Below, one piece after another: positions 14,448 through 37,123 of a stretch of DNA of 64,000 nt. Source of the stretch: a virus; the IMG/VR virus record IMGVR_UViG_3300006175_000010, positions 3,150 through 67,149 of that record, one strand, 5' to 3'. Below the pieces are notes generated by a model. It was not told the DNA's origin. It saw only the letters and a list, made by a program, of their open reading frames with translations, and made no database searches. The position numbers and the translations under genes are program-made. Positions within the stretch are counted from its first letter, which is position 1, and the number at the start of each line of letters is the position of its first letter.

Positions 14448-14589
14448 ACACTATTTTATGATAAGAAATATATAGGATTTAAAGATTTTTTATTTTTTAG
14501 GTCTTTGAAACTTTTGAGGATCAATCAACAACTTTTTAACTTATATTTAAATGTTGTTACTTACTTACTAGATAAATCTTTCGATATAT

Positions 14590-15042
14590 TTATATAGAAT
14601 TAATGATTTTCTCACCGTGTAACTCATTCTCTGCCTTATCCCATCCTACTAATGCTGGGTGTTTGATTAAACTAATCTCTGGTTTATATTCTACTATTAT
14701 TTCATTTGTTATTATTGGTTTTTTATGGTTTTCGATGATTCTTCTTAATTTAATTATGTTTTTTACTTTTGGATTTCCATGTTCTCTATTCTCATATCTC
14801 TTAATCCAGTTACAGTTAGAACAAAGGACTTGGAGTTTTTTCAATGCTAAATCTGGATTCTTATTATAAAATAAATACATTGAACCACCAGTGATTCCTA
14901 AAGCCCTATCTTCATTACCATCCCCATTAATATGATCAAAATGAAGTGCTCTCTTGTCACTAAATCCACACCTAACACAAGTGTGACCTAATAAATTAAA
15001 TAGTTTTTCTTTATGAATTTTCCATTTACTTTCGGTTACCAT
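14590..15042 (-). CDS. HNH endonuclease
   Basis: CVRCG...LHFDHINGDG...LQVLCSNCN. Confidence 0.85.
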   Translation of the reverse strand: MVTESKWKIHKEKLFNLLGHTCVRCGFSDKRALHFDHINGDGNEDRALGITGGSMYLFYNKNPDLALKKLQVLCSNCNWIKRYENREHGNPKVKNIIKLRRIIENHKKPIITNEIIVEYKPEISLIKHPALVGWDKAENELHGEKIINSI

Positions 15043-15228
15043 GTAACCAAGTATTAATATATCTAATATTTAAATCTTTAAAAAAGTCAATAAATAACAC
15101 AAATTTTAGTCCAAGGTCTTTTTTATGGATTTTAATTTGGATTTGGTCTTGCATTTGTCAGAACACTTGCATATATCATCATGTGAATCTTCCATAAGAT
15201 TTATATTTGTGAGGACTTATTATATTTT

Positions 15229-16429
15229 ATGAGAATAATAAGCAAGGAAAGACATAGAGGTTTTAATGTCTGCTATCATTGGCAACTTTCTTGGGACTCT
15301 AAAAGATGGGAGTATTTCTTAAGGAAATGAAAGTAACTAGAGAATATGGTGATCCAAAGAAATATTCTTGGTTTCAACAAAATAGAAAGGAAGTTTTCCT
15401 AAAGATTCATATTACATTTAACTGGATAAATGAACAGCATTGGATGATACCTTTTGGTGGGAAGATTTGGGAATGAAAATCTGGAAGTCATATTGGATAA
15501 AACATGTTATGGGATTTCTTGTTTATGCCGCACCTGTTAATGACCGTGATATCATATATTATGGTGATACTCTTAATGGAGATATTAGAGAAGCCTGTAA
15601 ATCATCTTATAGACAATCACACACGAGTGAATTGGCACAATGAAGTTATTTAGATGGAATTGTGGTTGTACTGGAATGAATGAAACACATTTTTATAAGG
15701 TTAATCAGTTATATGTTATACATTGGAAGAATCCAGATAAGCCATGATTGAAATTCTTCTAGCCGTTGGTATTGCTTGGTGGTGGTTATACCACAGAAAA
15801 CGAAAGCCCAAAGAACTTGATGATTCTTATGAAGGCAAGGTAGATATAGATGGACGTTCTTATGGATATGTCAAAGATGATGAAAATATTAGGGAATTGA
15901 TATGAGTAAAGAAGACATGTGTTGGTTAGCCGGAACCGTTTTTATTGGAATGTGTGCTATTCTATATATTAACTGTGTAGCGAGTGGATATTGTGGATGA
16001 GAATATATAGATATTTTGGAAATTTTAATCATTGGGTTTATAATCTCTGGGTTTGGAATTTTGTAAAAATAATTAAAACCAGACATGGAAGTGGTTTGAT
16101 AGAATGAGAATAGGATTTAGGTCTTGGAGTGCAAAATTTCCATATGTTCTAAAAACAAGATTAAATGATGGTAGTTTAAAATATGATAGACGTTGGTGTG
16201 ATGGTAAATGTTATTTCCAAATCTGGTGGAGAGAAAGAAAAAAATGAGAGTATTCAGATTCAAATCTATGGAATTATCATCAATCGCTGAAGTAACAAAC
16301 TATTCAGGCATATGGGTTTCTTGGGCAAAAAAGAAAAGAGAAAGTTATGAAACTGGTGGGGCTGGGGACTTTGGATCTAGCCCAAAGGATTTGAGTAGAT
16401 TACCTCTAGCGACTTCATCCCTTGGATAA
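15229..16429 (+). other. array of 9 translationally coupled micro-ORFs (7 MxIxR-type, 2 single-TM)
   Basis: MRIISK, MKVTR, MKIWK, MKLFR, MIEIL(TM), MSKED(TM), MRIYR, MRIGFR, MRVFR; every junction is ATGA. Confidence 0.75.
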
Positions 16430-16620
16430 GTATCCCAAGCGAATTTAATCCTGTTTTTATTGTTGTCTGTTTTTACCAGATTTTGATGATCCCAAGCGGC
16501 TTGTATGTTTATACCTTCATTTGAAGTTGGTGCAACTGGTGTACCGTCCTCATGGAAGACATAAACTCCGTTTTTGAATCTGTTTTTAGGATCTGTTTTT
16601 AATTGTGGTTGTGGTGCCAT
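16345..16620 (-). CDS. hypothetical protein
   Basis: 91 aa, TATA box upstream. Confidence 0.6.
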   Translation of the reverse strand: MAPQPQLKTDPKNRFKNGVYVFHEDGTPVAPTSNEGINIQAAWDHQNLVKTDNNKNRIKFAWDTYPRDEVARGNLLKSFGLDPKSPAPPVS

Positions 16621-16696
16621 TATATTTAAGTGTTATTATTTGGAGTATTTAAATCTTTTTTATACATTTATATTGATGTGTATATATTGTAATACC

Positions 16697-16891
16697 ATGC
16701 GAAAAATTTGGTGTGATAAAGACACCTGTAGAAAGAAAATAGAACATGGAGAACAAGTAATAACACTCTTTGACTTGGATTTCTGTGAGGATTGTGCATT
16801 GACGCTAAAGGCTTCCGTACTAGCATGGGCAAACCCAGAAAATGCACCTAAACCAGAATATTCCGAATCAGACTGTGCTAGTTGTAAATAA
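16697..16891 (+). CDS. small Zn-finger protein
   Basis: MRKIWCDKDTC...FCEDC...CASCK. Confidence 0.55.
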   Translation: MRKIWCDKDTCRKKIEHGEQVITLFDLDFCEDCALTLKASVLAWANPENAPKPEYSESDCASCK

Positions 16892-16896
16892 TACAA

Positions 16897-17120
16897 CTAC
16901 CAATCTTTTTTATTTAAAAGGAATTTTGGACGTTTCTCAGTCCCTATAGTTAATTCAAAATCATCCATTAATAATCTCCAATTATTTGTATTTAATAATT
17001 CATAAAATCTATCTATTCTCATGTTATACTCCTTACACCAAATTCACTGGTTATTGAACTTACCTTAACATACAACCAATATAAAGTTCCGGCTTTTATT
17101 CTATATATATCCAACAACAT
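16897..17120 (-). other. two coupled MxIxR micro-ORFs ((ML)LDIYR..., MRIDR...)
   Basis: ATGA overlap at ~17020. Confidence 0.6.
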
Positions 17121-17173
17121 GGATCAGTATTTACACAACCTTTATATTTAACCATTATGCTTTACTATACTCC

Positions 17174-17398
17174 ATGGCAAAAACAAACATATGTCACAAT
17201 GATGACTGTATGAAAAAATACAATGGGGTCAATAAAAGTAATCTTGTTTCTTATATATTAGGATTCAAATACTGCCGTGAATGTAGAAAGTATTTTAAGG
17301 TGGATTATTGGAAATGCCTATGTTGTGGTTCCAGATTGCGTGGAAAACCGGCTAACGGGGTAAAAAGGGAAGAATTGGTCGTAGCCTCTAGGGTTTAG
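17174..17398 (+). CDS. Zn-ribbon protein
   Basis: CREC...CLCCG.RLR. Confidence 0.65.
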   Translation: MAKTNICHNDDCMKKYNGVNKSNLVSYILGFKYCRECRKYFKVDYWKCLCCGSRLRGKPANGVKREELVVASRV

Positions 17399-17631
17399 AA
17401 CCACTCGGATTCTAATTGTCTTTGTGCCCAATGATCTTGGTCTGCGTCCGTATCTGATTCTATTATATTCAGTACAGCATGTATGGATTCATGGATTAAA
17501 AGATTTATAAGTTCCGTATGTGAATCCAGATTCTTTAGGTGTATTGTGCATATATTCTTGGTTGTCTCGCCTGTGAAGGGGCTGTCTTCAAAATCAAATT
17601 TGAACTCTATTTCCTCTGATTTCTTAGGCAT
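17395..17631 (-). CDS. small HExxH metallopeptidase-like protein
   Basis: LLIHESIHAVL. Confidence 0.55.
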   Translation of the reverse strand: MPKKSEEIEFKFDFEDSPFTGETTKNICTIHLKNLDSHTELINLLIHESIHAVLNIIESDTDADQDHWAQRQLESEWF

Positions 17632-17667
17632 AACGTTTATATTGGAATATGGTATTTAATTATTCTA

Positions 17668-17862
17668 TTGGAAATTCATATGTCTTGGTTTATTTATGAT
17701 GGTATACCTGACTATGATTCTGATTTGAAAAAAGTAACACAGATAAAATTTTCCAATAAATCTAGGCATGGACAGGTTTCAGCACAAATCGCTTTGTTAA
17801 AAAATGGTACTTGGGATATATGGTATCATGGTATGCCTACTCTAGCAGACAGGCGAATGTAA
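17668..17862 (+). CDS. hypothetical small protein
   Basis: 64 aa, TTG start after TATA-like box. Confidence 0.45.
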   Translation: MEIHMSWFIYDGIPDYDSDLKKVTQIKFSNKSRHGQVSAQIALLKNGTWDIWYHGMPTLADRRM

Positions 17863-18083
17863 TGATAATTGATCGTATTTATAGAGACGAAATAGATGAC
17901 CGGGAATGGAACCGTACCGGAAAGGATGATTATTTTAATTCCTTATTGGTGCAGATACAGATATCTCCCGCTGATCCCCATAGGGCACAGGTAGTTTCAG
18001 GATTGATAGAATATTTTGTAAATGGATATACAAGAGAACAATACTGCCGAAACCCTTATAAACTAGAGCGATTTTATAATACC

Positions 18084-18380
18084 ATGGTTGAAATATCCAA
18101 AATCCGTCCGGGATTTACCAAGATAGACTGTGAAGGCGAAATACTTGATGTCTCAGCCCCAAGGACTGTAAACCTCAAAACAGGTTCTACATCTCAGGTC
18201 GCAGACGCAATACTTAAAGACCAGTCCGGTACAATCACCCTGACTCTATGGGATCATAACATAAAGATGGTTCGTAAGGGTTCAAAGGTTCAGATAGCCG
18301 GTGGCTTTGCAAAGGACTTTAAAGGCAAAATGTCGCTTTCAACAGGGAAGTTTGGTAAATTAGAAGTAGTACAATATTAG
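18084..18380 (+). CDS. ssb: single-stranded DNA-binding protein (single OB fold, archaeal type)
   Basis: PRTVNLKTG...VADAILKDQSGTITLTLW...GKFGKL; start at MVEISK (an in-frame upstream MIIDR... extension from 17862 is possible). Confidence 0.85.
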   Translation: MVEISKIRPGFTKIDCEGEILDVSAPRTVNLKTGSTSQVADAILKDQSGTITLTLWDHNIKMVRKGSKVQIAGGFAKDFKGKMSLSTGKFGKLEVVQY

Positions 18381-18964
18381 TGGACTATACGCTCAAATTT
18401 TTTGCTGATAGCCATTATAGTATTTTTTCTTCCTAGACTTTTAGTTTTATGTGTTTCCATATTTATTTGAAAGCACCAGTTATATCTACTTTTTATTTCC
18501 ATATTGATTATAAATTATGGGAAGATTTAAAGGTTCTCCACCAGCACACCATAAATACCATTCTAGGGTACTAATATTAAAATAAACTTTGCTTATCAAC
18601 AAATGTTTTCATCCATATTTTAAATTCTCTTTTATTTACAAATCCACGGATTTCTTTCCAACCAGTACAATATATGGCTACATATGAATAATCATTTAAT
18701 TGCATAGTAGTCATGGAACGTCTACCTTCTCCAGTGGTATGATCGGTGTGAATATTCAATCCCAAGGTGTCCTTCCTTCAACCATCCATGCGGGAAACTC
18801 ATTTGATATCAGAGTCCACCACATGTGTTTCTGGATATTATTTTTGTTTACTACCATGCCCTTCTTGTATATATTATATCATCATATATCTCTTTTGGTT
18901 GGCTACTGAGCCTTACATAATATGATATAAGGTATTTTTGTCCGAATTCTTTACTTATTACCAA
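18377..18964 (-). other. array of 5 MxIxR-like micro-ORFs
   Basis: MVISK, MVVNK, MNIHT, MLISK, MEIKS with overlapping stop/start. Confidence 0.6.
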
Positions 18965-19121
18965 GCCGCTTCATACAACCTCGGGTACACCAAGTACATA
19001 TATCTGTTTCGGATTTGGGTGTCATTATACTGCACGAACCCAGATGTTTTCCGGGGACTCCGGGCATGGCTACATTAGGACACTTACATTGTACCCTTTC
19101 AGGCTCTTTGACGGAGAACAT
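18951..19121 (-). CDS. small Cys-rich protein (56 aa)
   Basis: MFSVKEPERVQCKC...CTWCTRGC. Confidence 0.5.
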   Translation of the reverse strand: MFSVKEPERVQCKCPNVAMPGVPGKHLGSCSIMTPKSETDICTWCTRGCMKRLGNK

Positions 19122-19207
19122 CAATAAAGGTTCTTGTGGTTCTTATATAAACTTTTACCATTGTGAAATGTTTATCAAACCTTTTGGTCAAAGGATTATA
19201 TAAAGGT

Positions 19208-21469
19208 TTAATTCTTATTCGCATACCTTCCTTCCAGATAAGTAAAGAATCTAGGTTCATACAAGGCGGCACATATCATACAATATGCCCATAACCGTAT
19301 TTGGTGCCATCCTCTATCTATATTCATCTCTATTCCCACTCCGGGTTTTATATAATATTCTTGCACCAAAAGAGCGTGGATCGATTGCAACGGCATATAA
19401 TTTAAAACGTATTGAGCGATCAACTATCAATTTTATACACCCACCATAAAAAGAAACCATTCCTGTATATCTTTTCTATTGCAACTCCATTATAACTACC
19501 ATTTGAATTCATTCTTACTCTGTCAATACTCATGATATAAACCAACCTTTCGTGGCTTTTATATAATATATTTTTTCAAACTCGGTATCATATATGTTAT
19601 TAGTACCAAAACAATATAATACCCTTCTATTGTCGGAATACCTGTTAATTTTCAATATATACCCAACCTGACTCTATAGGACTTGTGTATTAAAAGTCTT
19701 TTCTGTATTATATAAGAAAACTCAATCTTCATTATCTTTCAGACTTCCAACATACCAAATAATAATACCAAGACTGTATTGGTTCTACAAAATATGGATA
19801 TCGTTTATGCCGTACTGAACAATTATGGTTTCTCTGAATCTTCATATCCTACCAAAATCCCAGCAAAGCATGATTTCTCCTTTTAGACTCCATCCCCTAT
19901 TAGGGTATATACCATGATCCAAAGTACAAGCAAAGTTCCTAAGTATTTTCATAATATCATGTACCTCATAAACCACAGGTTGCCACATGCTATTATGGGT
20001 TTTTTACTCAATATGTTTGAACTTCTGGTTCTTATATACATTGTTCTAACATCACCATATTCCACAGATGAATATGTTAGATATGCGGGGATAAAAATGT
20101 TCCCTTATTTGCTTGGAACTGCTCCAAGCCCCAGAGCGTCTTATTCTCATTCCCACAAATCCCAAGAATTATCAGGTTTCATCAATATTGGTTTTCTTAA
20201 ACCCGGGTGCCCATTTCCACAATATAGATATCTGGTATGTTCATACACATTACCCCTATGGACATGCATGTTATATATAGTCCACCTTGTATAAAGTCTT
20301 GGCATATCTACTACCATAGATAAATATTGTACAGGGAAACCTATGTATACTCAAAACTCATCATACCACCTGAATTCACTGGAACTATGCAGACTGGCAT
20401 ATATCAAATAACCTTCCTTGAATCTTAGTACCTTCATGTCTTTATCTCTATACTTTCCGATGATATGTTATCATTTAGTATAGGTATAGGATCCATGGTA
20501 GAACGGACGAAAACCATCACGATGTGTTTTCCACCTATGTTTCTATATACTATCATATTTTATCATCACTTGGGTAATTTGGTAAAAAACCTAGCACCAT
20601 ATGTATTATCAGCAACCATAACGTAACGCCAATATTTAAACGAACGGTCAATCAACATATTTTGACTTGCTCCAACCTTGAGACGCTACAATATCATACA
20701 TTGAATTACTGTCTCCATTATCTTCCAAACAATATAAAAACATATGGCTAAAGGTTCTAATTACTTTCATGTTCGTACCAACTCCTTCAATATTCCTTTC
20801 CTTGTCGTATGAAGTATGTCTCCCCTAAAATACCTTCCGGTTGAAAAATATATGCCAAGATATCCCCTGTCAATCAACATCTATCATCAGCCCTACAACC
20901 ATGTCCTGCAACTTCTGTACTTATATATAAAGCATGACATGTATCCGATATGTGTTTTTCCCAATGATCCATTCCTCGTAATATTCTCATATAGTATCAT
21001 AACCCCTAGTTATCATACCCCAAGCAATATGCCAATATGATGGGGATACTACAATATCAATAAATACCGAGCGGGAGAATACAAATCTTCTAAGGTTCAA
21101 ATGCTATCCTTCCTGAATTTGTGAAAAGTTCGCCAAATCTTAATGACCAATTACCTTTAGAATACAAGTAAACTTCCCCATCATTCCACCTATCTATTGT
21201 CATCCACTGTCTATCATGGGAATCCCGTATATATGCCTTACCATTATAAATCTTACGGAACGGTAATCCTTAATCAACCACATACTTGCTGTAACTCCAA
21301 AACGATATCTTGCTTGTATATTGATTGGCTATTAATACACAATGGGCTTGGGTATAATAACTCTTGACTATTCTCATGTTATCCTCAAGTTAATATGCCT
21401 TATGTTTAATCCTGTACTGACCCATAAATAGCGGGTATAATTAACAATACTTCCCCTTGTTATCCACAT
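19208..21469 (-). other. array of 22 MxIxR micro-ORFs behind one TATA box
   Basis: Hand-translated contiguous chain (see findings); TTTATAAA ~22 nt upstream of first ATG. Confidence 0.8.
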
Positions 21470-21505
21470 GGTACCACTTGTACTGTGTTATTTATAAATG
21501 TTATG

Positions 21506-21769
21506 TTATATTCTTATACGCCTTTTCATAATACCATATAAATGTTCTTCTATAGAAGCAAGTAGAATGTTTGAATATATATCCTTAATGGCATTATTTA
21601 CTATACTAGCACGAATTTCCAGTTTATCCTTTTGTAGTTCTATATTACGTGATTCCTTCAGAAGGGCTATTAATTGTACTGTAGTATTGGATCTCTTATG
21701 CTTTCTGGTTTTTTTCTGTACTGATCCTTTTATGGATTCCATGGTACCTATATTATCCAGCTCACGCAC
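21506..21769 (-). CDS. hypothetical protein
   Basis: 87 aa basic helical ORF. Confidence 0.45.
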   Translation of the reverse strand: MRELDNIGTMESIKGSVQKKTRKHKRSNTTVQLIALLKESRNIELQKDKLEIRASIVNNAIKDIYSNILLASIEEHLYGIMKRRIRI

Positions 21770-21960
21770 ATATATAAACGTTACACTGTGGACGATTCCT
21801 TATAAGGTCATGCCTAAGCCTCATGGTTTATATATACGATATATAACAGTATTGTTTATACAAACCTTTATAACACCGAAAGCCTTAAATATATGCAAAT
21901 TTTGTGCGTCCTATTATATGATACACTATACCTAATATAAATGTTTCTATCCTAAATAAT

Positions 21961-22219
21961 TTAAAAATGTCTCCAAGTCCACCAATTCACAAAACTGCGT
22001 ATATCCCCTATTAGTATTACACAGCCTATTTTATTCCTATTAATGATCCTCATATCCCAGAACCAATAAATATCCAATAGGTTTGGAAAATAGTATATAT
22101 CCCTAATATCCCTTTAGAACGCCTAATACTCATATCTTCAAATTTATTAAGGATGCCAACCTAGGGGTAATATACAAATAACGGGTATAAGATAATAAAT
22201 AACCCCTACTAATCTTCAT
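21961..22219 (-). other. array of 3 MxIxR micro-ORFs (MKISRG, MSIRR, MRIINR)
   Basis: ATGA junctions. Confidence 0.7.
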
Positions 22220-22249
22220 ATCATAATATAACCAAATGGTATAATAAAA

Positions 22250-22362
22250 GGATACCCCATATCTGGGACGTAGCCTCAGCCTATGGGTATTAGACGGCTA
22301 ACGGGTTGCTCGTCTAAGCAAGGCATCTCGTTGATGATCCGTATTTGAAACCCCGTTTGCAA
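22250..22362 (-). ncRNA. candidate pseudoknotted RNA
   Basis: GC-rich island with three hairpins and AACGGG/CCCGTT long-range pairing; TATA box upstream, T-tract downstream. Confidence 0.4.
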
Positions 22363-22646
22363 TTATAGTATAACCTAAAGAGTAATATAAATGTTTTGCT
22401 GGTATTTATACCCTTATAAAGGGTTAAATACGTTGCCTTTTGGCAACTTAGTATTTAAGTGTTTCGCAAGGCTTATATAGTTGCGATACCTTTATATACC
22501 CAATTTGGGAATGATCTTATACTGTGTAGCGACAGAAAGGTATATATAGGGGTGGGTGTCTCGTTAAAAGACTTAATCCACTAGGAACAAATACAATTAA
22601 TAATTTATTAATTTAATAAAACTATAATTTAATAAAATAATAAAGA

Positions 22647-22838
22647 CTATACTATATCGTATAGTTCTCTATAGTTGGATCTTTCTACATCAGAATATAT
22701 AGCCCTTTCAACTGATTTGACTTTCATATAATTACTCAAGTCTTTTCTGTCCATTATACTATATATGTTCTCTACCATTTGCTTAACTTGGTTCTCTGTA
22801 AGAGATACATCAAGCCTTTTTGGAAGGTATTTTTTCAT
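22647..22838 (-). CDS. hypothetical protein
   Basis: 63 aa. Confidence 0.5.
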   Translation of the reverse strand: MKKYLPKRLDVSLTENQVKQMVENIYSIMDRKDLSNYMKVKSVERAIYSDVERSNYRELYDIV

Positions 22839-22948
22839 ACCCTAATATCCATAAAAGGATATATAAATGTTATTGCATAACAGTTAATAATATGGGATAT
22901 AATGATATCCCCAGAACATTTATATTAGTATTAGATTATTATAACAGC

Positions 22949-23356
22949 ATGGAAATAATCAAGTTTGATAAAATAAGAAAAAATCTTTGGTATGTTTCAA
23001 CAATGGATGACGGCTTGATAGGAATATATACAAGTAAAAGAATAGCATTAGCATATAGCCCAAGTGCTGGGGGTGATTCCAGAGTGCAAAGATATTCTAG
23101 CGGATCATATCAATATGGTAAGGGCTATATACAAAAAGGGTCATCATTACATATAGATGAATTCACACCAGAAAACATTAAGGAATATAATAAAGGATGT
23201 GATGAAAAAACAAAATATTGGTTTAAGACTGCCTTTAAATGCCATGACTGCGGTAAGAATATAGTAAGATATGATATGATATTTCACACTGAAAAAATTC
23301 ATAATAAGCCATGGTTTCCAAGTGAGTATCAAAACGAGGAGATAGTAATAGAATGA
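22949..23356 (+). CDS. hypothetical protein with C2H2 finger
   Basis: Likely start MEIIKFDK; CHDC...HTEKIH. Confidence 0.6.
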   Translation: MEIIKFDKIRKNLWYVSTMDDGLIGIYTSKRIALAYSPSAGGDSRVQRYSSGSYQYGKGYIQKGSSLHIDEFTPENIKEYNKGCDEKTKYWFKTAFKCHDCGKNIVRYDMIFHTEKIHNKPWFPSEYQNEEIVIE

Positions 23357-23476
23357 AAAAACTTAAGCCATGTATAAAATGTTCTAGAACCGAATGGTCT
23401 GACACTTACTATCATTTATGGGAAATGCAAAAAGGTCTTTTTATAAAATGTGGTTTTTGTGGTTATGAACACAATA

Positions 23477-23970
23477 TTAATAAATAGTATATCCTTCCCT
23501 GTTTAATTCTAATTCCTTATAATAGTTTGAATCACTATGGATTAATATGCATATTTCATAATCCCCCTTGAATTGGAAATAGGATCTAGTTATTCTCATA
23601 TCTCAATAAAAAAACATTTTGAATTAATCTGGTTATTTCTGCCATCATGGTTTAACAGATGTATGTCTATGAGCGGCTTTCTGTTAAAACTCATAACATA
23701 ATATTCTCTGAAGATTTTCATAATATATCATAACCGTTTCTTTTTATTTTCCTAAAATTCATGTTATCGTCTATACTATGACCAGTGTCTATAATGTAAA
23801 TATTGATTTCATTTCTGTGCACCATAGGTTTAAAGAACTTTCTAATATTCATGCTATATAAAATCCTTCATGTTTAACAACTAGATCATGATAAAAACTC
23901 TCCACTGTTTGGAAAAATATATGTTAATAGTTATTGCTTTCATTCCATAATGATGTTTTTGTATACTCAT
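23477..23970 (-). other. array of 4 MxIxR micro-ORFs (MSIQK, MNIRK, MKIFR, MRITR)
   Basis: Hand translation; ATGA junctions for the last three. Confidence 0.7.
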
Positions 23971-24064
23971 TATATTACATCATAACATATCATACAATAA
24001 AAGTCTTACGTTTTGTATTTATACCACCAAAACGAATATATATCTATGTGATCATAGTGATCCT

Positions 24065-24373
24065 ATGCAACAAACAACAAAAAGCCAAAAGGCACAACTA
24101 ATACCAAAAGATATGTATGCAGTCTCAGGTATTAAATTAGTGAAAAATGCAACTGTCTTCCAAAAAGACGGGGTTTATTATGCAATGCACTACGAAACAA
24201 TAATCTTTGCATATGATTCAAAAAGTCAAAGAGTAGAAGCAAATTGGCATTGTTCTACCACTTCAGACAGACAAATAAGATATTGTCTAAAGTTCTTTGG
24301 GTTGGATGAATCCAAGGTAATTAATACCCATGAGGGCGGCAAGTGGAACTATTCAAGGTCGTTGTATGTATGA
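24065..24373 (+). CDS. hypothetical early protein
   Basis: 102 aa; HYETIIF...STTSDRQ. Confidence 0.65.
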   Translation: MQQTTKSQKAQLIPKDMYAVSGIKLVKNATVFQKDGVYYAMHYETIIFAYDSKSQRVEANWHCSTTSDRQIRYCLKFFGLDESKVINTHEGGKWNYSRSLYV

Positions 24374-24600
24374 CCCAAAGAATAACAGACAGCCAACTAC
24401 AAGCCAAGGTAGATCACCTAAACGAAATCTCTAAGGTGAAATATGAACTGTATTATAGATATGGTCATGTATCTATGGTAAATGCAGACACCAGAAGGGA
24501 TATAACCTCATGTGGTACAAAGTACAGCGTATATTATGAGATAGACGCTATAACATCATGGCTTTCAGAAGAAAGAAAAGCCCAACAGGTGACCGCATAA
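24370..24600 (+). CDS. hypothetical protein
   Basis: MTQRITDSQLQAKVDHLN; ATGA-coupled. Confidence 0.6.
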   Translation: MTQRITDSQLQAKVDHLNEISKVKYELYYRYGHVSMVNADTRRDITSCGTKYSVYYEIDAITSWLSEERKAQQVTA

Positions 24601-24719
24601 TATGGGAACTTGTCAAAACTGCAAACAATATGTGAATCTGTTTGACTCCATGTTCGATAAAAAAGGGCGTCCAGTTCATCAAAAATGCCCTAAAGAAATA
24701 ACCGAGGAGCCTTTTTAAT

Positions 24720-24926
24720 ATGAAAAGGTTCTTATTGTTTGCCTTTGATCAATACTACCCAAGCGGGGGAATGAATGACTTTATCAAGGACTTTGATACC
24801 TTAATAGAGGCATATAGAACAAGCCTACAACACAGACAAGACTTTAAACAAATATATGACAGTGAAAAAAGAGAAGTCATAGAAATTGATAAATTAATAG
24901 AAAAATCAATTCTAGACTACATATAG
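24720..24926 (+). CDS. small viral hypothetical protein
   Basis: MKRFLLFAFDQYYPSGGMNDF. Confidence 0.65.
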   Translation: MKRFLLFAFDQYYPSGGMNDFIKDFDTLIEAYRTSLQHRQDFKQIYDSEKREVIEIDKLIEKSILDYI

Positions 24927-24962
24927 AAAGGCTTTTATTCCCTTTCTTTTTATTCTAGTATA

Positions 24963-25907
24963 TTGAAAGTTCAAAGGGATCCAAGAAAGTATATTTGGAT
25001 AATGTTAAGTAACTCATGGCAAACTAACGGAAAACATAATGAATATAACTGGTTAGCATTAAAAAATAGAACTTATAAAGATATTCCCTCTGTATTTTGT
25101 TGGGCTTGATGATATAATATGCATATAAGAGCCTATTTTAATGATACTTGGCTGGGTTACTTTGTAAATATATCACCTAAAAGTATTGAAAGAGATGAAA
25201 GGGCTATATCTAATCTAAACCGTGCGATTGTTGGGTGTGTCTGGGTAAAATGAGAATTATAGCATATAGAGATCCAATAATAACAGGATTAGATAAGACA
25301 GTTATTTATCTCGATTGTGGTGAATCAAAGAACTTTAATAAATTTATTGAAACTTGGTTTGTAGTAAAAGAAACCAAGAAAACAAAGATATATTTATGGG
25401 ATAATCAAAATGACTATAAATAGATACTATTTCCCAGACGGGCATATAATAGCAGATTATGAAGTCGATTGTGGTTTTGAAATATGTTTTACTTCATATG
25501 AGGATATATAAAAATGAAAATTGTTAAAGATGGTCATTCAATAATATGTTTTTACATACAAAACAACGATACACCAAATAAGGAGATATTAACTATAGAC
25601 CATGGAAAATGGCGTATTTTATACGCTGGGGATCATATTAACAAATGAATGTTATTATTTATTGGCATTTAGGTAGATCAAATAGTGCAAATTTTACATG
25701 GAAAAATGTTTTTTTGAAACTTAATAATCACTCATATAGACAAATCACTAAGGGCGAACCATACAAATATTGGAGACAAGATTATTAATGAATATATATC
25801 ATAGTAAGATAGATTATTATGATTTTGTTATAAGAATATCGTCCGAAAATCAGTTTGGTAGAGTTAGATTAAGAGAATTTTATACACCAAAGATTAGATG
25901 GATTTAG
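24963..25907 (+). other. array of 7 MxIxR-like micro-ORFs
   Basis: MKVQR, MHIRA, MRIIA, MTINR, MKIVK, MNVII, MNIYH. Confidence 0.7.
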
Positions 25908-26097
25908 GTATTATAACATTACATATACCACAGATATCTTTTCCTATAGTATGTAACGATTCTAATCGCTTTTTATTGCATGGCAAACAATGATAACAGG
26001 GGATCACAGTCTCAGGGGTCTTGGGATCATCTATTATTTTGATATTGCACAAGTGGCACAAATGATTTTTAAACTCAGTCATGGTTATATAAGGCAT
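25894..26097 (-). CDS. small Zn-finger protein
   Basis: CHLC, CYHCLPC, CGIC. Confidence 0.55.
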   Translation of the reverse strand: MPYITMTEFKNHLCHLCNIKIIDDPKTPETVIPCYHCLPCNKKRLESLHTIGKDICGICNVIIPKSI

Positions 26098-26182
26098 TAT
26101 GTAAAGGAAACATTAATAGTATTTAAATGTATCGGTTTCATTATAAATAGATTTATATGTGGTTGTTTCATAATAAAATGTT

Positions 26183-27068
26183 ATGGTTATAATTAAATCA
26201 GATATCAAACCTTATGGCATAATGTGGTCGCCATGAGAATCAATAGATTTATTAATACTAATGATCATGGAGTAACTTGGAATATTATATTTAACTCGTT
26301 TTATATGTATTGTTGAGATATGAATATAATTAGAAGTGTGCCCTTAATAAGATTTGAAACATGGATATGTTTATTAGACTCTTATTATATAATAATTAAT
26401 TGGAAAGCATGAAAATAATAAAGACTTTTTTTGATAGTATTAATGGTAAATGCCTTAATATTAATTATATGGTATCCACTGAGCAGGACTGGTCATTTAA
26501 GATACTAGCGCAGTATGACACAAAAACATTTTTCTATGGATTTAAGAAATGAAGATTAGGAGAAACATTTATCATTTTAATATGTATGATCTGGTAGATA
26601 ATAATTGGGATTTAAGGACTAATTATAGATGGACTGAAGAACTTGAACATTGAAAGACATGGTGATTTAATTTGTTTGTATTTCTTTTTTAATAATGATC
26701 CTATGTTTGTTTATTATATACCAAAAGAAAGAAAGGTCAATAAGGATTTAAAGATATGTTAATAGCCAAATTCTTTTATGGTGGATTAACGCCAACAATA
26801 AGTAAAGTAATATATCATGAAGGCTTTTCAGGGAGTTTTATAAGAGTGTTATGTTAATTAGAAAGTTTTATTCTAATCATTGGAAAGCATTATTAAAAAC
26901 AGAGATACAGTTATGGTTTTGTGATACTATTGATGGTTGCAGAGTCATAAAGAGAAAAGGATATACACTAATATGAGAATATTTAAGACCTATGCTTATA
27001 ATAGAATTTTTGTGGATTTATCAATAAATATTAAATCTTTTTTAACCATACCTTTTACAGTTTATTAA
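26183..27068 (+). other. array of 9 MxIxR micro-ORFs
   Basis: MVIIK, MRINR, MNIIR, MKIIK, MKIRR, MNIER, MLIAK, MLIRK, MRIFK; AGATTTATAT promoter at ~26149. Confidence 0.8.
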
Positions 27069-27330
27069 GAAAGATTTATAAATAGTATTATGTATATACT
27101 ATACCATGGAAACTGCTAAAATCTTTCCAAGAATAAAATCAGAATTCTCCGAATTTTTTGAGGATCTAAAGGATGTCTTTTGGGATACTGATTAAGATGG
27201 TAAACCATTTAAAAATTAGTTGTAAATGTTGTGATGTTTTAAATACTAAAGAGTGGCAAAATTGGGTATATAAAATGGGATTTAAGGATAAATTTCTTGA
27301 TATGGATTACTTCCAAGGGGTTAGGGCTTA

Positions 27331-27546
27331 ATGGATAGAATCATTTATAAGGGCAGATTATTTGTCCCTCTTGGTAAATTTGATGGAAGATTTAACCCTG
27401 ATTTACAATATGTCGAACTGGATGAAATAATAAAACAAGTCCATGAAAAACTAATGGCTTTGGAAGAAATTAAAAAGGAACAAGCCAAAATACAAAAGGA
27501 ACAACAGCAAAAACCAATAGCGGATTCAAAGATAGGTATATTTTAA
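27331..27546 (+). CDS. hypothetical coiled-coil protein
   Basis: 71 aa. Confidence 0.55.
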   Translation: MDRIIYKGRLFVPLGKFDGRFNPDLQYVELDEIIKQVHEKLMALEEIKKEQAKIQKEQQQKPIADSKIGIF

Positions 27547-28150
27547 TGTTTGTTTCCAGAATTCCTTATTTAATGGGTCAGATAAGACTATGGATTAACA
27601 CTAAACAAGAAACATCTATAAGAAGGGCATTTTATTAATGTATATCTATAGATACAATTATGAAGAAAGTAATAGGATTTTCATTAACGGATTAAAAAAC
27701 ATAACCATATTATGGATGAGACGATATGCGTATAACTAAAAATATATCATTCCTAGAAAGAGATTTAAAGTTTCATGTATGGAATGGTATAATATCAACA
27801 AATATTCTAGTCTGGTGGTCTAAATGAAAGTTAGTAGATTCCGCTGGGGTCAAGGTCTAGAAGTATTTATTAATCAGAATTATACAATAAGTGTATTTAT
27901 ATGAAAGTAGATAGATCATCAATATTTTTTATTGGAAATGTTTCGGCATATGATATATCTATCCTTAATGTAGAAGATTTTAGCAGGGGTTGGCGTAGGT
28001 TATATCCTGATAAAAAAATACATTTAAATATAGCACAAGGTAAAGATGTTATAGAATATGTCTATTAGAAGATCGGTTATAAACCCACACACAAATATAA
28101 TCTTATTTATCAATAAGAGGGGTTCTTATGAGCATGGATGGTGGGTTTAA
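27546..28150 (+). other. array of 6 MxIxR micro-ORFs
   Basis: MFVSR, MYIYR, MRITK, MKVSR, MKVDR, MSIRR. Confidence 0.75.
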
Positions 28151-28449
28151 TGATAAGAAAAGGCTTTTATGAATATTTAGAACAAGACCTATCCAAAAAT
28201 GGATTCTTGACACAAATAATAGTGGATGACACTTTTATAAAACTATTGGCAAAACATGAAATAACCAACAAAGTGATAAACGTATTTTATGATATAATAC
28301 ACGGCAAATATATCATAGCAATCGGATCATTATATAATGCCGATATCCAACAACAATTTGAAGATCCAGATGAGGCTTTGGGGTTCTATATGGAACAGTT
28401 ATCCACACTAAAAAATGATTTTGGTACAGACCTTAGCGATCTGGTATGA
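28150..28449 (+). CDS. hypothetical protein
   Basis: MIRKGFYEYL..., TAATG-coupled. Confidence 0.6.
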   Translation: MIRKGFYEYLEQDLSKNGFLTQIIVDDTFIKLLAKHEITNKVINVFYDIIHGKYIIAIGSLYNADIQQQFEDPDEALGFYMEQLSTLKNDFGTDLSDLV

Positions 28450-29531
28450 GGGTTTACCATTGGTATAGAGATTGGCACCCGAAAGACAGTATAAGAGTAA
28501 TGGCTACAACTTCTATACCAGAAATAACGGTGGCGATATATAGAAAATGAGAATTTTATCTTATTATTGGTATGGTTATGAATCTGAGAATGATTTTTTA
28601 AGATATATGGATTCACCAAATTGTATGTATTATATTATTAAAAAGAAAGGACATTATGAGTTATTTGATTGTAGAGTTGGTTTTAACGATGATAAGACAG
28701 TAATAAAAAGGATACCAAAATGAGAATCTGGAAAGTTTTTGCTGATATGGATGTAAGACCTGATATAAATGTTTATGATTGCTGGGTAGATTCCACAGCA
28801 CATGATTGTCTATATGTCCATCTACCAAAACACTAATATTATACTACATCATACCATCACAGTTATGCATGTATGGAGAGGTACAGACTTTAATAAAAAA
28901 ATAGTGGATGTAATGCCACAGGATAAACTATCAATGAATGACTATGCAAATTATTTCTTGGAGCGATATCATTAATGAGATCTGATATTTGGATTATAAG
29001 AGATATAAGACGTTCTGGTGTTTTTGGAAGTGCCTTTGATCTAAAAATACCATATCTCTGTGATTACATGTCCAATGGAGAACCAATAACAAAAGGAAGT
29101 GTTCATTATAAACAAAATGGTGGAGACATAGATATAGGATATATAAAACAGGGTAATAACATAATAATAGAAAAGATAGATTACCATGTAAATAATTTCA
29201 GGAGACTAATGATATGAAAGTTATAAAGGAGTATTTTAACAGCGAAAGATATTATTGTGTTATCTGGTTAAACACAGAACCACAATCACCTAATGAAATA
29301 TTTGATCATTTAGCCTTTGAGGCTCCATTATGATAATTATCAAGTATTGGACTGGACGAGAGTGTATTTTCATGTATGTATCCACTAAAGCAATAAGTAG
29401 GTGTTTGCCAAGAAATGAAGATTAGTAAGTTCTATTATGGTAAAAGATGGAGAAGTGATAAACCACACATGAATTTATATCTTTGGTTTGCTTCACTAAA
29501 ACACCTTACTTTTATAACAACTTACCAATAA
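28446..29531 (+). other. micro-ORF array (MRVYH, MRILS, MYYIIK, MRIWK, MKVIK, MIIIK, MKISK) enclosing an 80-aa ORF at 28975-29217
   Basis: Hand translation; some internal starts ambiguous. Confidence 0.6.
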
Positions 29532-29571: not shown

Positions 29572-30795
29572 ATGACTGAAACAAAGTCTACAAAAGCAAA
29601 AACAACAACAAAAGCAAAAATTTCGGAAATCAAACCCGAACAACTTGCAAGACTCAGAGAAATCACTGATTCTTGGATAAGATTAGCCACACGAGGCAAG
29701 TGTGCTAATATCAGCCCAGCAGAACTACAGGAAACCATAAACTGGAACTACAAGCAAGCCGGATTAAAAGCCCCGACACTTGTAATAGCCAACAATCTGG
29801 TCGAGTATAAGATGATGGGACATATTGCAACACAAGCAGGCTATAAGACCATAGACGAAAAGACAATCTACGAGAAATATGTTGGATTGGTCGATAACAT
29901 GGAAAAACAGTTATACGACAAACTAACAAATGAAGTAGGTTCAAAACTATGGACTGAATCCAAGGAAAGGATGGAAACAGCACTACTCACAAACATGCTC
30001 AACCCACTACAACGAGCAGTCACAGCCATGAACGAGTCAGAACTTCCAAGAATGAAAGGAATCTTTGCAGATGTAAAGAAATCCTTTGAAGAACAGACAG
30101 GAGTAAAATTGGGCAAGAAAAATATAGAGTATGGATTGGCAACAATCGAATACTACTTTGGACTTGCACATGATTCACACCTTCCGTTCTATGAGTTCTG
30201 CCTAGAAGAAGGATTCATGGAGAACAAGACCATGGTGGAATACATTGAAAAGTTCAAGAATGGATTCTTGACAATGTTATTCTTTGATGGCTTGGCGATA
30301 GCATGTAGACTACCAAAACAGGTAAAGAAGAACGGTGCTGGATTCCTACATGATGACAAAGAGTTTGCTGTAAAATGGAATGATGGTACAGGACACAACT
30401 TCCTAAGAGGTGTGTACTTTGATGAAAACATGTTCAACAGAGTAATAAACAGTGAAATTCCTGCAAAGGAGTTACTCCAAATCAAGAACATGGAACAAAG
30501 ATATGCAAGCATACAGGTCTATAATATAGACAAACTACTCAAGGAAGTAAATGCAAAAAGAATAGACAAAGCCAACAAGAAAAATCACGAAGGAAAGCCA
30601 TATTTCATAGAACTCTATGCGATAGATGGACTGATCCCAAACAGAACCTTAAAGTTGGTCAAATATTCTGATCCATCAACGGGTAGAGTATATCCTGACT
30701 TTGTACCTGATAAAATAATGGGTGCAGAGGAAGCAATGGCATTTAAATTCAATGTGCCTTTGCCGGAATACAAGACACTAACCAAAGAAGCATAA
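29572..30795 (+). CDS. DUF6745-like protein
   Basis: LHDDKEFAVKWNDG...GV, NMEQR, DPSTGRVY motifs recalled from DUF6745 proteins; not database-verified. Confidence 0.7.
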   Translation: MTETKSTKAKTTTKAKISEIKPEQLARLREITDSWIRLATRGKCANISPAELQETINWNYKQAGLKAPTLVIANNLVEYKMMGHIATQAGYKTIDEKTIYEKYVGLVDNMEKQLYDKLTNEVGSKLWTESKERMETALLTNMLNPLQRAVTAMNESELPRMKGIFADVKKSFEEQTGVKLGKKNIEYGLATIEYYFGLAHDSHLPFYEFCLEEGFMENKTMVEYIEKFKNGFLTMLFFDGLAIACRLPKQVKKNGAGFLHDDKEFAVKWNDGTGHNFLRGVYFDENMFNRVINSEIPAKELLQIKNMEQRYASIQVYNIDKLLKEVNAKRIDKANKKNHEGKPYFIELYAIDGLIPNRTLKLVKYSDPSTGRVYPDFVPDKIMGAEEAMAFKFNVPLPEYKTLTKEA

Positions 30796-30852: not shown

Positions 30853-31502
30853 ATGGTTCAAATAGATAGAAATGATTCACATAGTTTAGTATTCATTATT
30901 GTTTCAGATACCACTCTGATTACTTTATATGAAATGGATGATAGAAACAAATTAGAGATTTGGACAACTTTACCAGAAAAGTATGATCTAAAAAAATGGT
31001 TGAAAAAACATGTATGTTGATAAAGTCTGGGCTAATGGCTTATCATTTACTTCACATAAATGCCGTATAGGTAGAATATGGCAAGGAGAATGGTATGATA
31101 ACTATGAGAATTGAAAAACTTTCAGTAACAACTATAGATTATGTAATAAGATTTCCATATCTATTACACTGTTCTAATAATCCTTGGGTTATAAAACAGG
31201 AGTATTTTAGGGAATGATGATTGATAGACTTGTACGTTATTCTGATGACTTTAAAACAGTATATTGTATAATAGGTAATTACCCAGACGCTAAATCACTT
31301 TGGAGAGTAAAATGAAACTGTCCAGATTATACGGTAAAGGTCAAAACTGGTATTTTACATATAAAGTCAGAATAGGTAAATATTCATCTAGAATTTCAGT
31401 ATGGATTGACTATGAATGAATATATGGAAGTCCAGAAAACAGTTTTATCGTATCCTAGAAATAGGTTCTAACTTATATCCGCCCATCCAGAATAATCAAT
31501 AG
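30853..31502 (+). other. array of 6 MxIxR micro-ORFs
   Basis: MVQIDR, MYVDK, MRIEK, MMIDR, MKLSR, MNIWK. Confidence 0.75.
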
Positions 31503-36614: not shown

Positions 36615-37123
36615 AAATAACTAGATTTATATCACCAACATGTAATTGCCCACAAAGAATAGCCAATTACGGAACATATATATACGTCCATGGTTCTACT
36701 AATTATAATGGCATCGGAAACATACAACAAGACACAAGTAAAGAAATGTAATACCTGTGGTAAAGAGATATTTGTATATCCCAACTCCGTTCCTATTTGT
36801 GATTCATGTTGGGAAAATAGAAATGATAATTGAAAGATTTTATATAGATGGTAAAGTAGAAATTTTTCTAGATATAACCACAGTACACACTAGATGGATT
36901 CCTTCAATATGTATATAATGTCTATTAGGTGGCATAATGAATACATACAACTAGATATGCATGTTGATATAAAAAAAGAGTGTTCTTGTGAGGTGGTAAT
37001 ATGTGGGTAATTAGGGATATTGATTTAGATGGTGGAATTGGTAATTATTTTTCACGAATAAAGATTTTAATAGATGATAACCATAATGTTTGGTTAAAGT
37101 TTGATATAGATTATGAAACATAG
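36611..37123 (+). other. micro-ORF array (MKITR, Zn-finger MASET, MIIER, MSIRW, MWVIR)
   Basis: Hand translation. Confidence 0.65.

Follow-up and report, generated by a model that had tools for sequence, protein, structure and literature searches.

A putative translationally coupled array of 22 micro-ORFs with unit-wise turnover in an archaeal-type tailed virus

Introduction

Integron arrays are promoter-proximal, one-directional rows of short promoterless cassettes of 500-1000 nt, with attC palindromes and the tyrosine recombinase IntI. The small and anti-defence proteins characterised in phages are mostly 50-150 aa long and are encoded singly or in small clusters. Two reports portray such proteins as small, fast-evolving early orphans of variable regions (PMC11323111, PMC11065993). 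The hyperplastic regions of T4-type phages are described as containing small orphan early genes that are shuffled in a modular fashion via PeSL elements (PMC2839356, PMC4122927); a PeSL is an intergenic sequence of ~100 bp comprising a sigma-70 promoter and a stem-loop terminator, with each cassette forming its own transcription unit (PMC2839356). Coupled overlapping gene pairs with termination-reinitiation occur in both archaea and bacteria, according to two further studies (PMC6728339, PMC10666635). In the literature on archaeal viruses and phages we found no description of a micro-ORF array, and the main text of an AOA-virome preprint (10.1101/2025.08.23.671958) makes no mention of small or short ORFs or of coding density.

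Here, we analyse a row of 22 micro-ORFs in a window of 64,000 nt, positions 3,150 to 67,149 of the IMG/VR record IMGVR_UViG_3300006175_000010. As in the T4-type hyperplastic regions, whole genes are inserted, deleted or replaced between close strains, the crossovers map to a short and conserved signal for expression, and there is no dedicated integrase, while a recombinase is encoded by the phage or virus itself. Unlike those regions, the array has no intergenic DNA, no stem-loop and no repeated promoter; its constant element is the coupling junction, its genes span only 26-41 codons, and it belongs to an archaeal-type virus. With integrons it shares a one-directional row of short, unrelated, promoterless units that are gained and lost as units, but the array lacks attC, the genome lacks a tyrosine integrase, and the units are of ~100 nt and overlap. 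ATGA-type overlaps or very short distances, together with an SD motif within the upstream gene, recall coupled gene pairs; the known examples involve two or a few ordinary genes, in many cases for the subunits of one complex, in contrast to 22 successive micro-ORFs. Finally, the products resemble the phage small-protein and anti-defence clusters in being small, fast-evolving orphans clustered in a variable region, but they match no PHROGs family.

Results

The record carries terminal repeats and is the complete genome of an archaeal-type tailed virus, 67 kb long. Its structural genes include portal, major head protein, protease and a TerL with an intein, and its replication and recombination genes include an MCM (E=8e-37) and a Rad51/RadA (E=9e-45). 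A relative of the portal is located in a Ca. Nitrosopelagicus MAG, and the DNA holders of the stretch are soil, rhizosphere and groundwater metagenomes, with no RNA run among them. The host is probably an archaeon, and probably a soil ammonia-oxidising thaumarchaeon. The array would belong to the early or non-structural part of the genome. Around 90 array-like micro-ORFs are spread over 15-42 kb (92 unfiltered chain members; a curated set of 78 with 8.7 kb in total), and ORFs of at least 100 aa are almost absent from this region. Directly upstream of the array lies an 87-aa minus-strand ORF (21506-21769) whose codon usage resembles that of the long genes; downstream follows a 57-aa Cys-rich ORF on the same strand (18951-19124). 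The GC skew agrees with the proposed coding strand.

The sequence-only reading had proposed 22 consecutive minus-strand micro-ORFs of 26-41 aa, at ~100 nt per unit, and both direct reading of the sequence and ORF tables bear this out, with a measured mean of 103 nt. Running from 21469 down to 19208, these are unit 1 (21374-21469, 31 aa), unit 2 (21270-21377, 35 aa), unit 3 (21200-21283, 27 aa), unit 4 (21090-21203, 37 aa), unit 5 (20987-21100, 37 aa), unit 6 (20874-20990, 38 aa), unit 7 (20767-20880, 37 aa), unit 8 (20648-20770, 40 aa), unit 9 (20566-20658, 30 aa), unit 10 (20434-20556, 40 aa), unit 11 (20351-20437, 28 aa), unit 12 (20271-20354, 27 aa), unit 13 (20147-20269, 40 aa), unit 14 (20052-20150, 32 aa), unit 15 (19949-20041, 30 aa), unit 16 (19842-19952, 36 aa), unit 17 (19732-19845, 37 aa), unit 18 (19652-19732, 26 aa), unit 19 (19530-19655, 41 aa), unit 20 (19420-19533, 37 aa), unit 21 (19314-19430, 38 aa) and unit 22 (19208-19327, 39 aa). 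A possible 23rd unit of 41 aa with an ATG start (19099-19224, minus strand) would prolong the chain with a 17-nt overlap to unit 22.

Codon 3 specifies I, V or L in all 22 units and codon 5 R or K in 20, the exceptions being the units starting at 20041 (unit 15, T) and 19732 (unit 18, F), exactly as first noticed. The ATG starts then assumed for every unit hold for 18 of the 22; units 5, 12, 19 and 21 begin with TTG (at 21100, 20354, 19655 and 19430). Because 19 of the 22 junctions overlap, the array is almost free of intergenic DNA, again as claimed, and the remaining spacers measure 1, 9 (after unit 9) and 10 nt (20042-20051, after unit 14). A 4-nt ATGA overlap is found at 11 of the 22 junctions and overlaps of 1-17 nt at 8 more, so that the offsets are mixed (-4, -7, -11, -14, -17, -1, +1, +9 and +10). 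The units end in TGA (16), TAA (4) or TAG (2).

This tiling is not a product of chance. In the interval 14500-29500, the longest chain of ORFs with I, V or L at codon 3 has 23 members, whereas none of 30 mononucleotide shuffles produced more than 4; with no motif required the figures are 30 and 8, and with both motif positions 14 and 2. R or K occupies codon 5 in 67 of the 92 unfiltered chain members; among controls built from reversed sequence, the count is 60 of 494. Of the DNA motif ATGANNATHNNNAGR, the window has 21 copies where 2.62 are expected (maximum 7 in 100 dinucleotide shuffles), and two complete relatives have 2 and 6. Chains longer than 5 are absent from 160 portal-related loci (~1.45 Mb), which comprise the best 80 of 316 relatives in viral contigs and the best 80 of 364 in metagenome contigs, at no more than 61% identity. 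A DNA pattern spanning three units proved too strict and fails even on the window itself.

Could the units instead be the remains of a broken-up long gene or repeat protein, or be joined into one product through another genetic code, serial frameshifting or bypassing? The scarcity of ORFs of at least 100 aa would fit such a product, and the ATGA junctions with their upstream G-rich element superficially resemble frameshift sites. However, stop-codon recoding is ruled out, as translation table 4, TAG=Q and TAA=Q all leave 19208-21469 without a long minus-strand ORF; the offsets, ranging from -17 to +10, are mixed; and every unit has a start codon of its own. A six-frame tblastn search with 634 segments of 14.1-34.1 kb against the 160 related loci returned one marginal match (E=7.5e-4, 21 aa), and word-based protein searches, whose scope ended at 77 aa and thus below fused forms, returned only the window's own proteins. 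As a whole unit is moreover missing in a relative (see below), we regard a joined product as highly improbable.

Which signals, then, would drive expression of separate micro-genes? The element TTTATAAA, noted earlier shortly before the first ATG, is present on the minus strand at 21491-21498, 21 nt upstream of that codon. It is palindromic and TATA-box-like. Its spacing makes it a candidate for the array's archaeal promoter and would be compatible, under the usual promoter geometry, with leaderless initiation in archaea. Transcription probably starts from this box, perhaps aided by further internal promoters. A 16-mer with TATA-like character occurs in two copies that are 94% identical, both on the minus strand and 15-20 nt upstream of a unit start: 19343-19358, a candidate internal promoter before unit 22 (start 19327), and 19554-19569 before unit 20 (start 19533). 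An extra TATA-like element lies at 20924-20931 on the same strand, and the 2.3-kb array contains only 3-4 such elements in total.

The junctions themselves carry a second signal. In the 17-nt stretches preceding the 22 internal starts, pairing with the anti-SD core averages -4.55 kcal/mol; the array's other NTG triplets, 136 in number, average -2.0 (Mann-Whitney p=1e-6). Pairing of -4 kcal/mol or stronger is seen at 14 of the 22 starts and at 25 of the 136 other triplets. GGWG or GWGG precedes 11 of 23 starts, over a background of 16%. Since the upstream ORF reads the G-rich element in differing frames, as W, G, R or K-V, the element is a nucleotide signal. Each unit would thereby have its own G-rich SD-like element, 7-18 nt before its start, and the earlier suspicion that the junction may be the only constant part is supported: together with the start and the five opening codons, the G-rich element makes up the junction. 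Two hallmarks of a coupled operon are present in the array, namely stop-start overlaps or spacers of at most 10 nt, and an SD-like motif upstream of the downstream start. While the ORF tiling and the junction signals are thus established, transcription and translation are what we infer from them: 22 or perhaps 23 distinct micro-genes would form a single polycistronic block, and as each start overlaps or abuts the preceding stop, ribosomes would move along it by termination-reinitiation, one unit after the other.

The regular spacing of ~103 nt with a short conserved motif, and the strong strand asymmetry, would also be expected of non-coding DNA or RNA units of ~100 nt, such as protein-binding sites or small RNAs, with the open frames as a by-product. 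Against such units, no Rfam family or tRNA relevant to the array was detected, RNA structure gave no signal in the units (mean folding z = -0.05), and scans of the array for tandem repeats, regular direct repeats, attC-like palindromes and spaced inverted repeats were negative. Conserved positions are preserved by different codons: in the curated 78, Arg at codon 5 is encoded by AGA (32), AGG (10) and CGN (6), near the usage of the genome. Which frame is kept free of stops differs from unit to unit, an avoidance that greatly exceeds chance expectation, and the SD-like elements stand at the correct distance from the starts. We give a non-coding array very little credence. The repeat scans also exclude a CRISPR or other repeat-spacer array, as there are no near-identical direct repeats at regular spacing. 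A diversity-generating retroelement is likewise excluded, with no match to the reverse transcriptase family PF00078 and no long template/variable repeat pair.

We return to the interpretation as coupled micro-genes and its predictions for related strains. Run X4, from soil, yielded one 6213-nt contig that is ~90% identical and differs by 220 SNPs and 30 indels. X4 lacks exactly one 119-nt unit (20433-20551, unit 10), which agrees in this one strain with the proposal that whole units are gained or lost at the junctions. Furthermore, it shows four block replacements bounded at junctions: the body of unit 1 is replaced by 309 nt, the body of unit 4 changes from 91 to 220 nt, units 6 and 7 are jointly replaced (239 to 230 nt), and unit 18 is replaced with part of unit 19 (142 to 71 nt). 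Breakpoints are non-random, in line with expectation, 8 of 10 homology breakpoints being no more than 10 nt away from a unit start (p=1e-4; one contig), although alignment ends are pulled toward the conserved junction motif. The likeness to a cassette array had been suggested together with a lack of attC-like palindromes and direct repeats; that lack is upheld by the regular-repeat and inverted-repeat scans, and the cassette-like behaviour extends to unit-wise turnover in one strain. The strain differences typical of T4-type regions, in which whole genes are inserted, deleted or replaced with crossovers in the conserved signal between them, have their counterpart here in one exact unit deletion and four replacements, all in the same strain.

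Unit-wise turnover is hence established for one related strain, and the loss and swapping of units at junctions in X4 suggests a fast-changing set of mini-proteins. Between strains, whole units would be deleted, inserted or replaced, with crossovers clustering in the junction, that is, in the SD element, start and first codons. Since crossovers cluster in this conserved segment, the junction would act both as expression signal and as recombination site. A tyrosine integrase (PF00589) had no match in the whole 67-kb record, whereas all control genomes matched. The exchange could be catalysed by the RadA-like recombinase of the virus, or it could proceed via microhomology, followed by selection for in-register products.

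Smaller differences in X4 were followed among 40 of the 220 SNPs and 12 of the 30 indels. Of the small indels, those listed for 19724-20432 are confined to the 10-nt spacer at 20042-20051, and a 1-nt deletion lies at 19388, inside unit 21. Both SNPs listed for unit 22 are synonymous and are common to runs X2 and X4. In the 57-aa Cys-rich ORF downstream, 10 codons and 3 residues are changed in X4, which points to purifying selection. Two neighbouring micro-ORFs that are not part of the array, 18602-18486 and 18502-18377, differ in X4 by 14 codons and 9 residues, a nearly neutral change; adjacent to them, two small genes of ordinary type show 19 changed codons and 4 changed residues.

The predicted products, mini-proteins of 26-41 residues with a high content of Trp, Tyr, Arg, His and Cys, would have only the N-terminal M-[K/R]-[I/V]-x-[R/K] in common. 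They would form a lineage-specific multigene family of ~90 members across the non-structural half of the genome, and the family seems to owe its expansion to tandem duplication and divergence. Paralogy as such is established. The best pair joins unit 13 to an ORF at 37438-37569 on the plus strand (46% identity, E=2.7e-8), units 16 and 17 are paralogues of each other, and unit 1 belongs to a paralogue group with the pattern 'RG..Y.YTRYLY'; two paralogue alignments, A2 and A3, were assembled. Pfam and PHROGs gave no significant match for the 78 micro-proteins (best Pfam E-value 0.016), a blastn search for distant relatives of the array in 50,697 phage records gave none, and a profile search of 1.84 billion representatives retrieved one related-strain orthologue and nothing else. 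MCM and SSB-like protein searches of viral contigs likewise brought up no relatives. In the collections searched, the family thus seems to have no homologue outside its lineage. For one member, the ESM Atlas offered SRAP peptidase fragments, which we discarded (sub-threshold at 0.89, 153 shared features); another member had no match there.

Do the peptides themselves matter? It is conceivable, if unlikely in our judgement, that the ORFs are translated but their products irrelevant, selection keeping only an unbroken chain of short coupled ORFs. The benefit of such a chain might lie in holding ribosomes on a long early transcript, in timing or feeding the expression of genes further downstream, the 57-aa Cys-rich ORF for example, or simply in filling the genome, and its units would drift freely, being at most a nursery for new genes. 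The near-neutral change in the two neighbouring micro-ORFs is what drift predicts, as are the lack of homologues in Pfam, PHROGs and the profile search, and a conservation confined to the junction. Codon statistics, too, are barely above composition: a three-frame codon-usage test prefers the in-frame model in 18 of the 22 units, and a stricter six-model test does so in 15 of 22 versus 128 of 256 same-length ORFs from shuffled array sequence. AlphaFold2 runs on two paralogue-group alignments gave folds of a confidence too low for interpretation (pLDDT 51 each). However, between paralogues the residue patterns extend well past the junction, as in the E=2.7e-8 pair and in alignment A2 with its invariant R5, G6, T12, R13 and Y14. 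When 11 paralogue pairs, which are not independent, are aligned as nucleotides without regard to frame, differences per codon position amount to 0.45, 0.32 and 0.48 (chi-square p=0.009), the second position being the best conserved. The 46-aa frame of a member located elsewhere, at 38215-38352, is intact in two other assemblies (P0006 and P0008, carried by Logan contigs of 27,282 and 1,861 nt), with a 30-residue core nearly invariant among the three strains. Last, codon 5 is kept as a residue rather than as a codon. We consider the array, with reasonable but not strong confidence, a translationally coupled operon of fast-turning-over micro-genes that would be shuffled at the coupling junction, as judged from sequence comparison.

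Discussion

What could a virus gain from such a coupled operon? Its function we can only infer: most likely, the products would be a quickly renewable set of small inhibitors for host takeover or against host defence. This leads to a more far-reaching and decidedly tentative scenario, that of a 'micro-integron' in an archaeal virus, either recombinase-independent or driven by RadA. In it, the coupling junction of SD, start and first five codons would double as the recombination site, such that ready-to-express micro-genes of 100 nt could be shuffled, duplicated and exchanged between co-infecting strains, building up a combinatorial, swiftly renewed repertoire of ~90 peptides of ~35 residues against host defence or for host takeover. 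If true, viral counter-defence would here be organised and evolve in a new manner, and the products would constitute a new family of archaeal viral mini-proteins.

Should the ~90 micro-ORFs be expressed, ~13% of a complete archaeal virus genome (8.7 kb for the set of 78) would be devoted to an unknown class of mini-proteins. The locus would then be a particularly clean natural system for the origin, duplication and exchange of tiny genes, and would show how far termination-reinitiation can carry ribosomes along an archaeal message. It would also open a window on the early-infection effects of viruses of ammonia-oxidising archaea on their hosts, about which, to our knowledge, almost nothing is known. 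The unit-wise turnover at the junctions constitutes a directly testable model.

Gene callers mostly miss proteins shorter than 50 residues. Unit 8, without relatives, has a gene call in a public collection (P0002), and among the members that we looked up in public gene records only those of at least 40 aa are present.

An array of micro-ORFs and its chance expectation

The array is real, statistically solid and lineage-specific, its population dynamics are cassette-like, and its units are putatively expressed. By direct reading and from ORF tables, it comprises 22 head-to-tail ORFs of 26-41 codons each on the minus strand (21469-19208), with I, V or L at codon 3 in all 22 and R or K at codon 5 in 20. 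This confirms the layout and motifs of the sequence-only reading, which had described the array as cassette-like, but four of the 22 starts are TTG, the other 18 being ATG. That reading had also seen neither attC-like palindromes nor direct repeats, and repeat and palindrome scans indeed found none in the array beyond the junction motif. At 11 junctions stop and start form a 4-nt ATGA overlap, at another eight the neighbouring ORFs share 1-17 nt, and at the remaining three they are separated by 1, 9 and 10 nt; TGA is the stop codon in 16 units. A TATA-box-like TTTATAAA (21491-21498, minus strand), 21 nt 5' of the first ATG, is a candidate promoter. At the other end, a possible 23rd ORF (19224-19099, minus) extends the chain and is followed by a Cys-rich 57-aa ORF (19124-18951, minus).

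Abutting ORFs with I/V/L at codon 3 form a chain of up to 23 members, whereas 30 mononucleotide shuffles of 14500-29500 gave chains of no more than 4; the corresponding values are 30 and 8 if the motif is not required, and 14 and 2 if both motif positions are. The window has 21 copies of the N-terminal motif written as DNA, ATGANNATHNNNAGR, where 2.62 are expected and 100 dinucleotide-preserving shuffles yield at most 7. Chains of the same kind occur on both strands between 15 and 42 kb, also between replication genes, and the array is thus one of several that belong to a single genome-wide family, and the largest of them; the family's chain members total 92 with a median of 37 aa. Chains with the start M-[K/R]-[I/V]-x-[R/K] lie on the plus strand at 15137-15747, 24963-28975, 31010-31502, 32836-33473, 36690-38595 and 41835-42341, and on the minus strand at 18964-18377 and 23852-23147.

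Signals at the junctions

Anti-SD core pairing upstream of the 22 internal starts has a mean energy of -4.55 kcal/mol, against -2.0 kcal/mol at 136 other NTG triplets in the array (p=1e-6) and -1.32 kcal/mol upstream of 38 long genes, many of them directly behind TATA-like boxes. As the G-rich junction element is translated as Trp, Gly, Arg or Lys-Val according to the frame of the upstream ORF, the frequent Trp and Gly near unit C-termini can best be put down to the SD of the unit that follows, and the ATGA overlap is the reason why ATG is followed by A in 15 of 22 units. Neither accounts for codons 3 and 5. R or K is found at codon 5 in 67 of the 92 unfiltered chain members and in 60 of 494 reversed-sequence controls. 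In a curated set of 78 (chain members minus 15 atypical ones, with two starts re-chosen and two ORFs added), codon-5 Arg is spread over AGA (32), AGG (10) and CGN (6), close to genome usage, which points to a constraint on the residue.

A TATA-like element, CTTTATAT/TTTATATA, abuts the annotated starts of many structural genes, 0-4 nt 5' of the ATG; minus-strand genes with it at the start are those at 1377, 2500, 4275, 5178, 52347, 63705, 21769 and 23852, and there are 21 copies of CTTTATAT where 8.3 would be expected. The usual archaeal distance from TATA box to start is longer, which means either that translation truly begins further downstream or that the element is a distinct, perhaps late, signal.

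Are the units coding?

ORF tiling, start signals, the residue-level motif and genuine paralogy argue for coding of the units. RNA-level explanations fare worse; Rfam and tRNA scans gave no match, and folding z-scores of the units average -0.05. Codon usage is less telling: a first test was passed by 18 of 22 units, and by 962 of 982 in-frame and 18 of 156 off-frame pieces of real genes, but in a stricter six-model test 15 of 22 units passed compared with 128 of 256 same-size ORFs from shuffled array sequence, so that composition alone explains most of this signal. Such weak statistics favour the main rival explanation, that only the translation relay matters and the peptides are unconstrained. 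We nevertheless consider it rather unlikely, since residue patterns are kept among paralogues. Units 1 and 13 form a group with ORFs at 22219 and 37438 (best pair 46% identical over 39 aa, E=2.7e-8), in whose alignment R5, G6, T12, R13 and Y14 are invariant; units 16 and 17, and units 9, 21 and 22, are further paralogues. When 11 paralogue pairs, which are not independent, were aligned as nucleotides without regard to frame, differences at the three codon positions were 0.45, 0.32 and 0.48, lowest at the second (p=0.009). None of the 78 micro-proteins matched Pfam or PHROGs, and AlphaFold2 reached a pLDDT of 51 with two paralogue alignments.

Also against unconstrained peptides stand conserved orthologues of the 46-aa ORF at 38215, P0006 and its cluster mate P0008, from two other assemblies. 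All three proteins are 46 aa long, with a nearly invariant C-terminal core of 30 residues and a variable N-terminal third in which M1, R5 and C10 are yet kept. P0006 was the one foreign protein returned when a Cys/His-subgroup profile was run against 1.84 billion representatives. This subgroup consists of micro-proteins of 34-48 aa with one conserved Cys and two His (M-R-I-x-R...C...H-I-D...I-H), encoded on the plus strand at 32836-33470, 38215-38492 and 42237-42338; it is possibly metal-binding, and its low-confidence AF2 model has a beta-hairpin at residues 21-37.

Unit turnover in a related strain

No relatives of the array were found among the phage records searched or around 160 related portals (the best 80 of 316 viral and the best 80 of 364 metagenome ones), and protein searches returned only the window's own proteins. 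The key result comes from assembled contigs of four sequencing runs, aligned to 18300-23900: three runs are at least 99% identical to the window and bring no further information, and the fourth, X4, is one 6213-nt soil-metagenome contig, about 82-96% identical in aligned blocks. X4 lacks 20433-20551 (119 nt), exactly unit 10, with an in-register join that lies five bases inside the start of unit 11. Unalignable sequence replaces the bodies of unit 1 (83 nt by 309 nt) and unit 4 (91 nt by 220 nt), units 6 and 7 (239 nt by 230 nt), and unit 18 with part of unit 19 (142 nt by 71 nt). Inside the array, 8 of 10 breakpoints fall within 10 nt of a unit start, as do 21% of positions (p=1e-4), and over the whole compared stretch 9 of 20 are near unit starts, as are 14% of positions (p=9e-4), both in a single contig whose conserved junctions attract alignment ends. 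The loss of unit 10 and these breakpoints agree with the earlier suggestion that whole units of about 100 nt are gained or lost at junctions. In the best-conserved block, the small indels among those listed fall in the 10-nt spacer 20042-20051.

Among the 40 of 220 SNPs and 12 of 30 indels listed for X4, the SSB-like OB-fold gene that converges on the minus-strand arrays (17811-18380, plus; PF21473, E=6e-8) has 9 codons but 1 residue changed, with 9 of its 11 SNPs at third positions. The Cys-rich ORF has 10 codons and 3 residues changed, and unit 22 has 2 and 0. In two micro-ORFs next to the array but not part of it, 14 codons and 9 residues are changed and there are no new stops; they may evolve close to neutrally, as unconstrained peptides would, or be diversifying. 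Upstream of an 87-aa ORF, 21853-21986 carries in X4 seven separate 1-nt deletions within 134 nt and behaves as non-coding; a plus-strand 145-codon ORF running over it (21498-21935) scores as non-coding. An AT-rich 8/16-nt microsatellite, TTAATAAT, lies at 22597-22643, where contigs of X1 and X3, two of the near-identical runs, break or diverge (loose ends 22604 and 22638).

Proposed mechanism and known systems

On balance we favour, with some reservation, an array of independent micro-genes in one polycistronic operon. The units would be expressed via translational coupling and turn over as cassettes, and the junction would double as expression signal and preferred crossover site. With so little homology at the junctions (ATGA and a few A-rich bases at the unit-10 deletion), events mediated by microhomology, with selection acting on the products, are just as plausible as homologous exchange. 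A RadA-type recombinase is encoded by the virus itself (Rad51/RadA, E=9e-45); the 67-kb record contains no tyrosine integrase and no reverse transcriptase. The genome part with the array is non-structural and presumably early, and this position, fast residue change and unit turnover fit a possible host-takeover or anti-defence role.

The array belongs with viral hypervariable small-gene regions, an already known phenomenon. The closest one described is, on the account in PMC2839356, the modular shuffling of orphan early genes in T4-type hyperplastic regions, by recombination between conserved promoter/stem-loop cassettes (PeSLs) flanking each ORF. The logic is shared, in that recombination takes place at the expression signal, entire genes are moved and an integrase is dispensable; in contrast, the element here is a translational junction with zero intergenic DNA, and the units are of about 100 nt (26-41 codons) in a single-operon layout and an archaeal setting. 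Termination-reinitiation coupling at ATGA overlaps is known for gene pairs, as PMC6728339 describes; a run of 22 micro-ORFs was not found in the literature searched, which included the main text of an AOA-virome preprint (10.1101/2025.08.23.671958). An integron (attC and IntI absent), a CRISPR array and a DGR (reverse transcriptase absent) were ruled out. So was a recoded region: under table 4, TAG=Q or TAA=Q, as under table 11, 14.5-29.5 kb has almost no ORF of at least 100 codons.

The virus and its host

The source record, of which the window is bases 3150-67149, is a complete IMG/VR virus of 67,149 bp with direct terminal repeats. Besides the recombinase and an MCM helicase (E=8e-37), the window encodes a portal, a head protease, a major head protein, a Laminin-G-rich virion protein and a large terminase with a probable intein; this combination is typical for tailed viruses of archaea. 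Relatives of the portal, most of them marine, number 316 in viral and 364 in metagenome contigs and are at most 61% identical; a Ca. Nitrosopelagicus MAG contig carries one of them, and two others are in bins labelled bacterial. Together with the archaeal-type genes and the occurrence of virus DNA in soil, rhizosphere and groundwater metagenomes, the Nitrosopelagicus relative makes a thaumarchaeal host likely. A word search of IMG/VR found no close relative of the MCM, and the non-structural half of the genome is thus much more isolated than the structural half. The large terminase (52820-55255, minus) is interrupted at residues ~493-550 by a LAGLIDADG-type insertion, probably an intein. Also encoded in the replication module are an asparagine-synthase-like/PP-loop protein and one that weakly matches DUF6745 (42472-43605 and 29572-30795, both plus).
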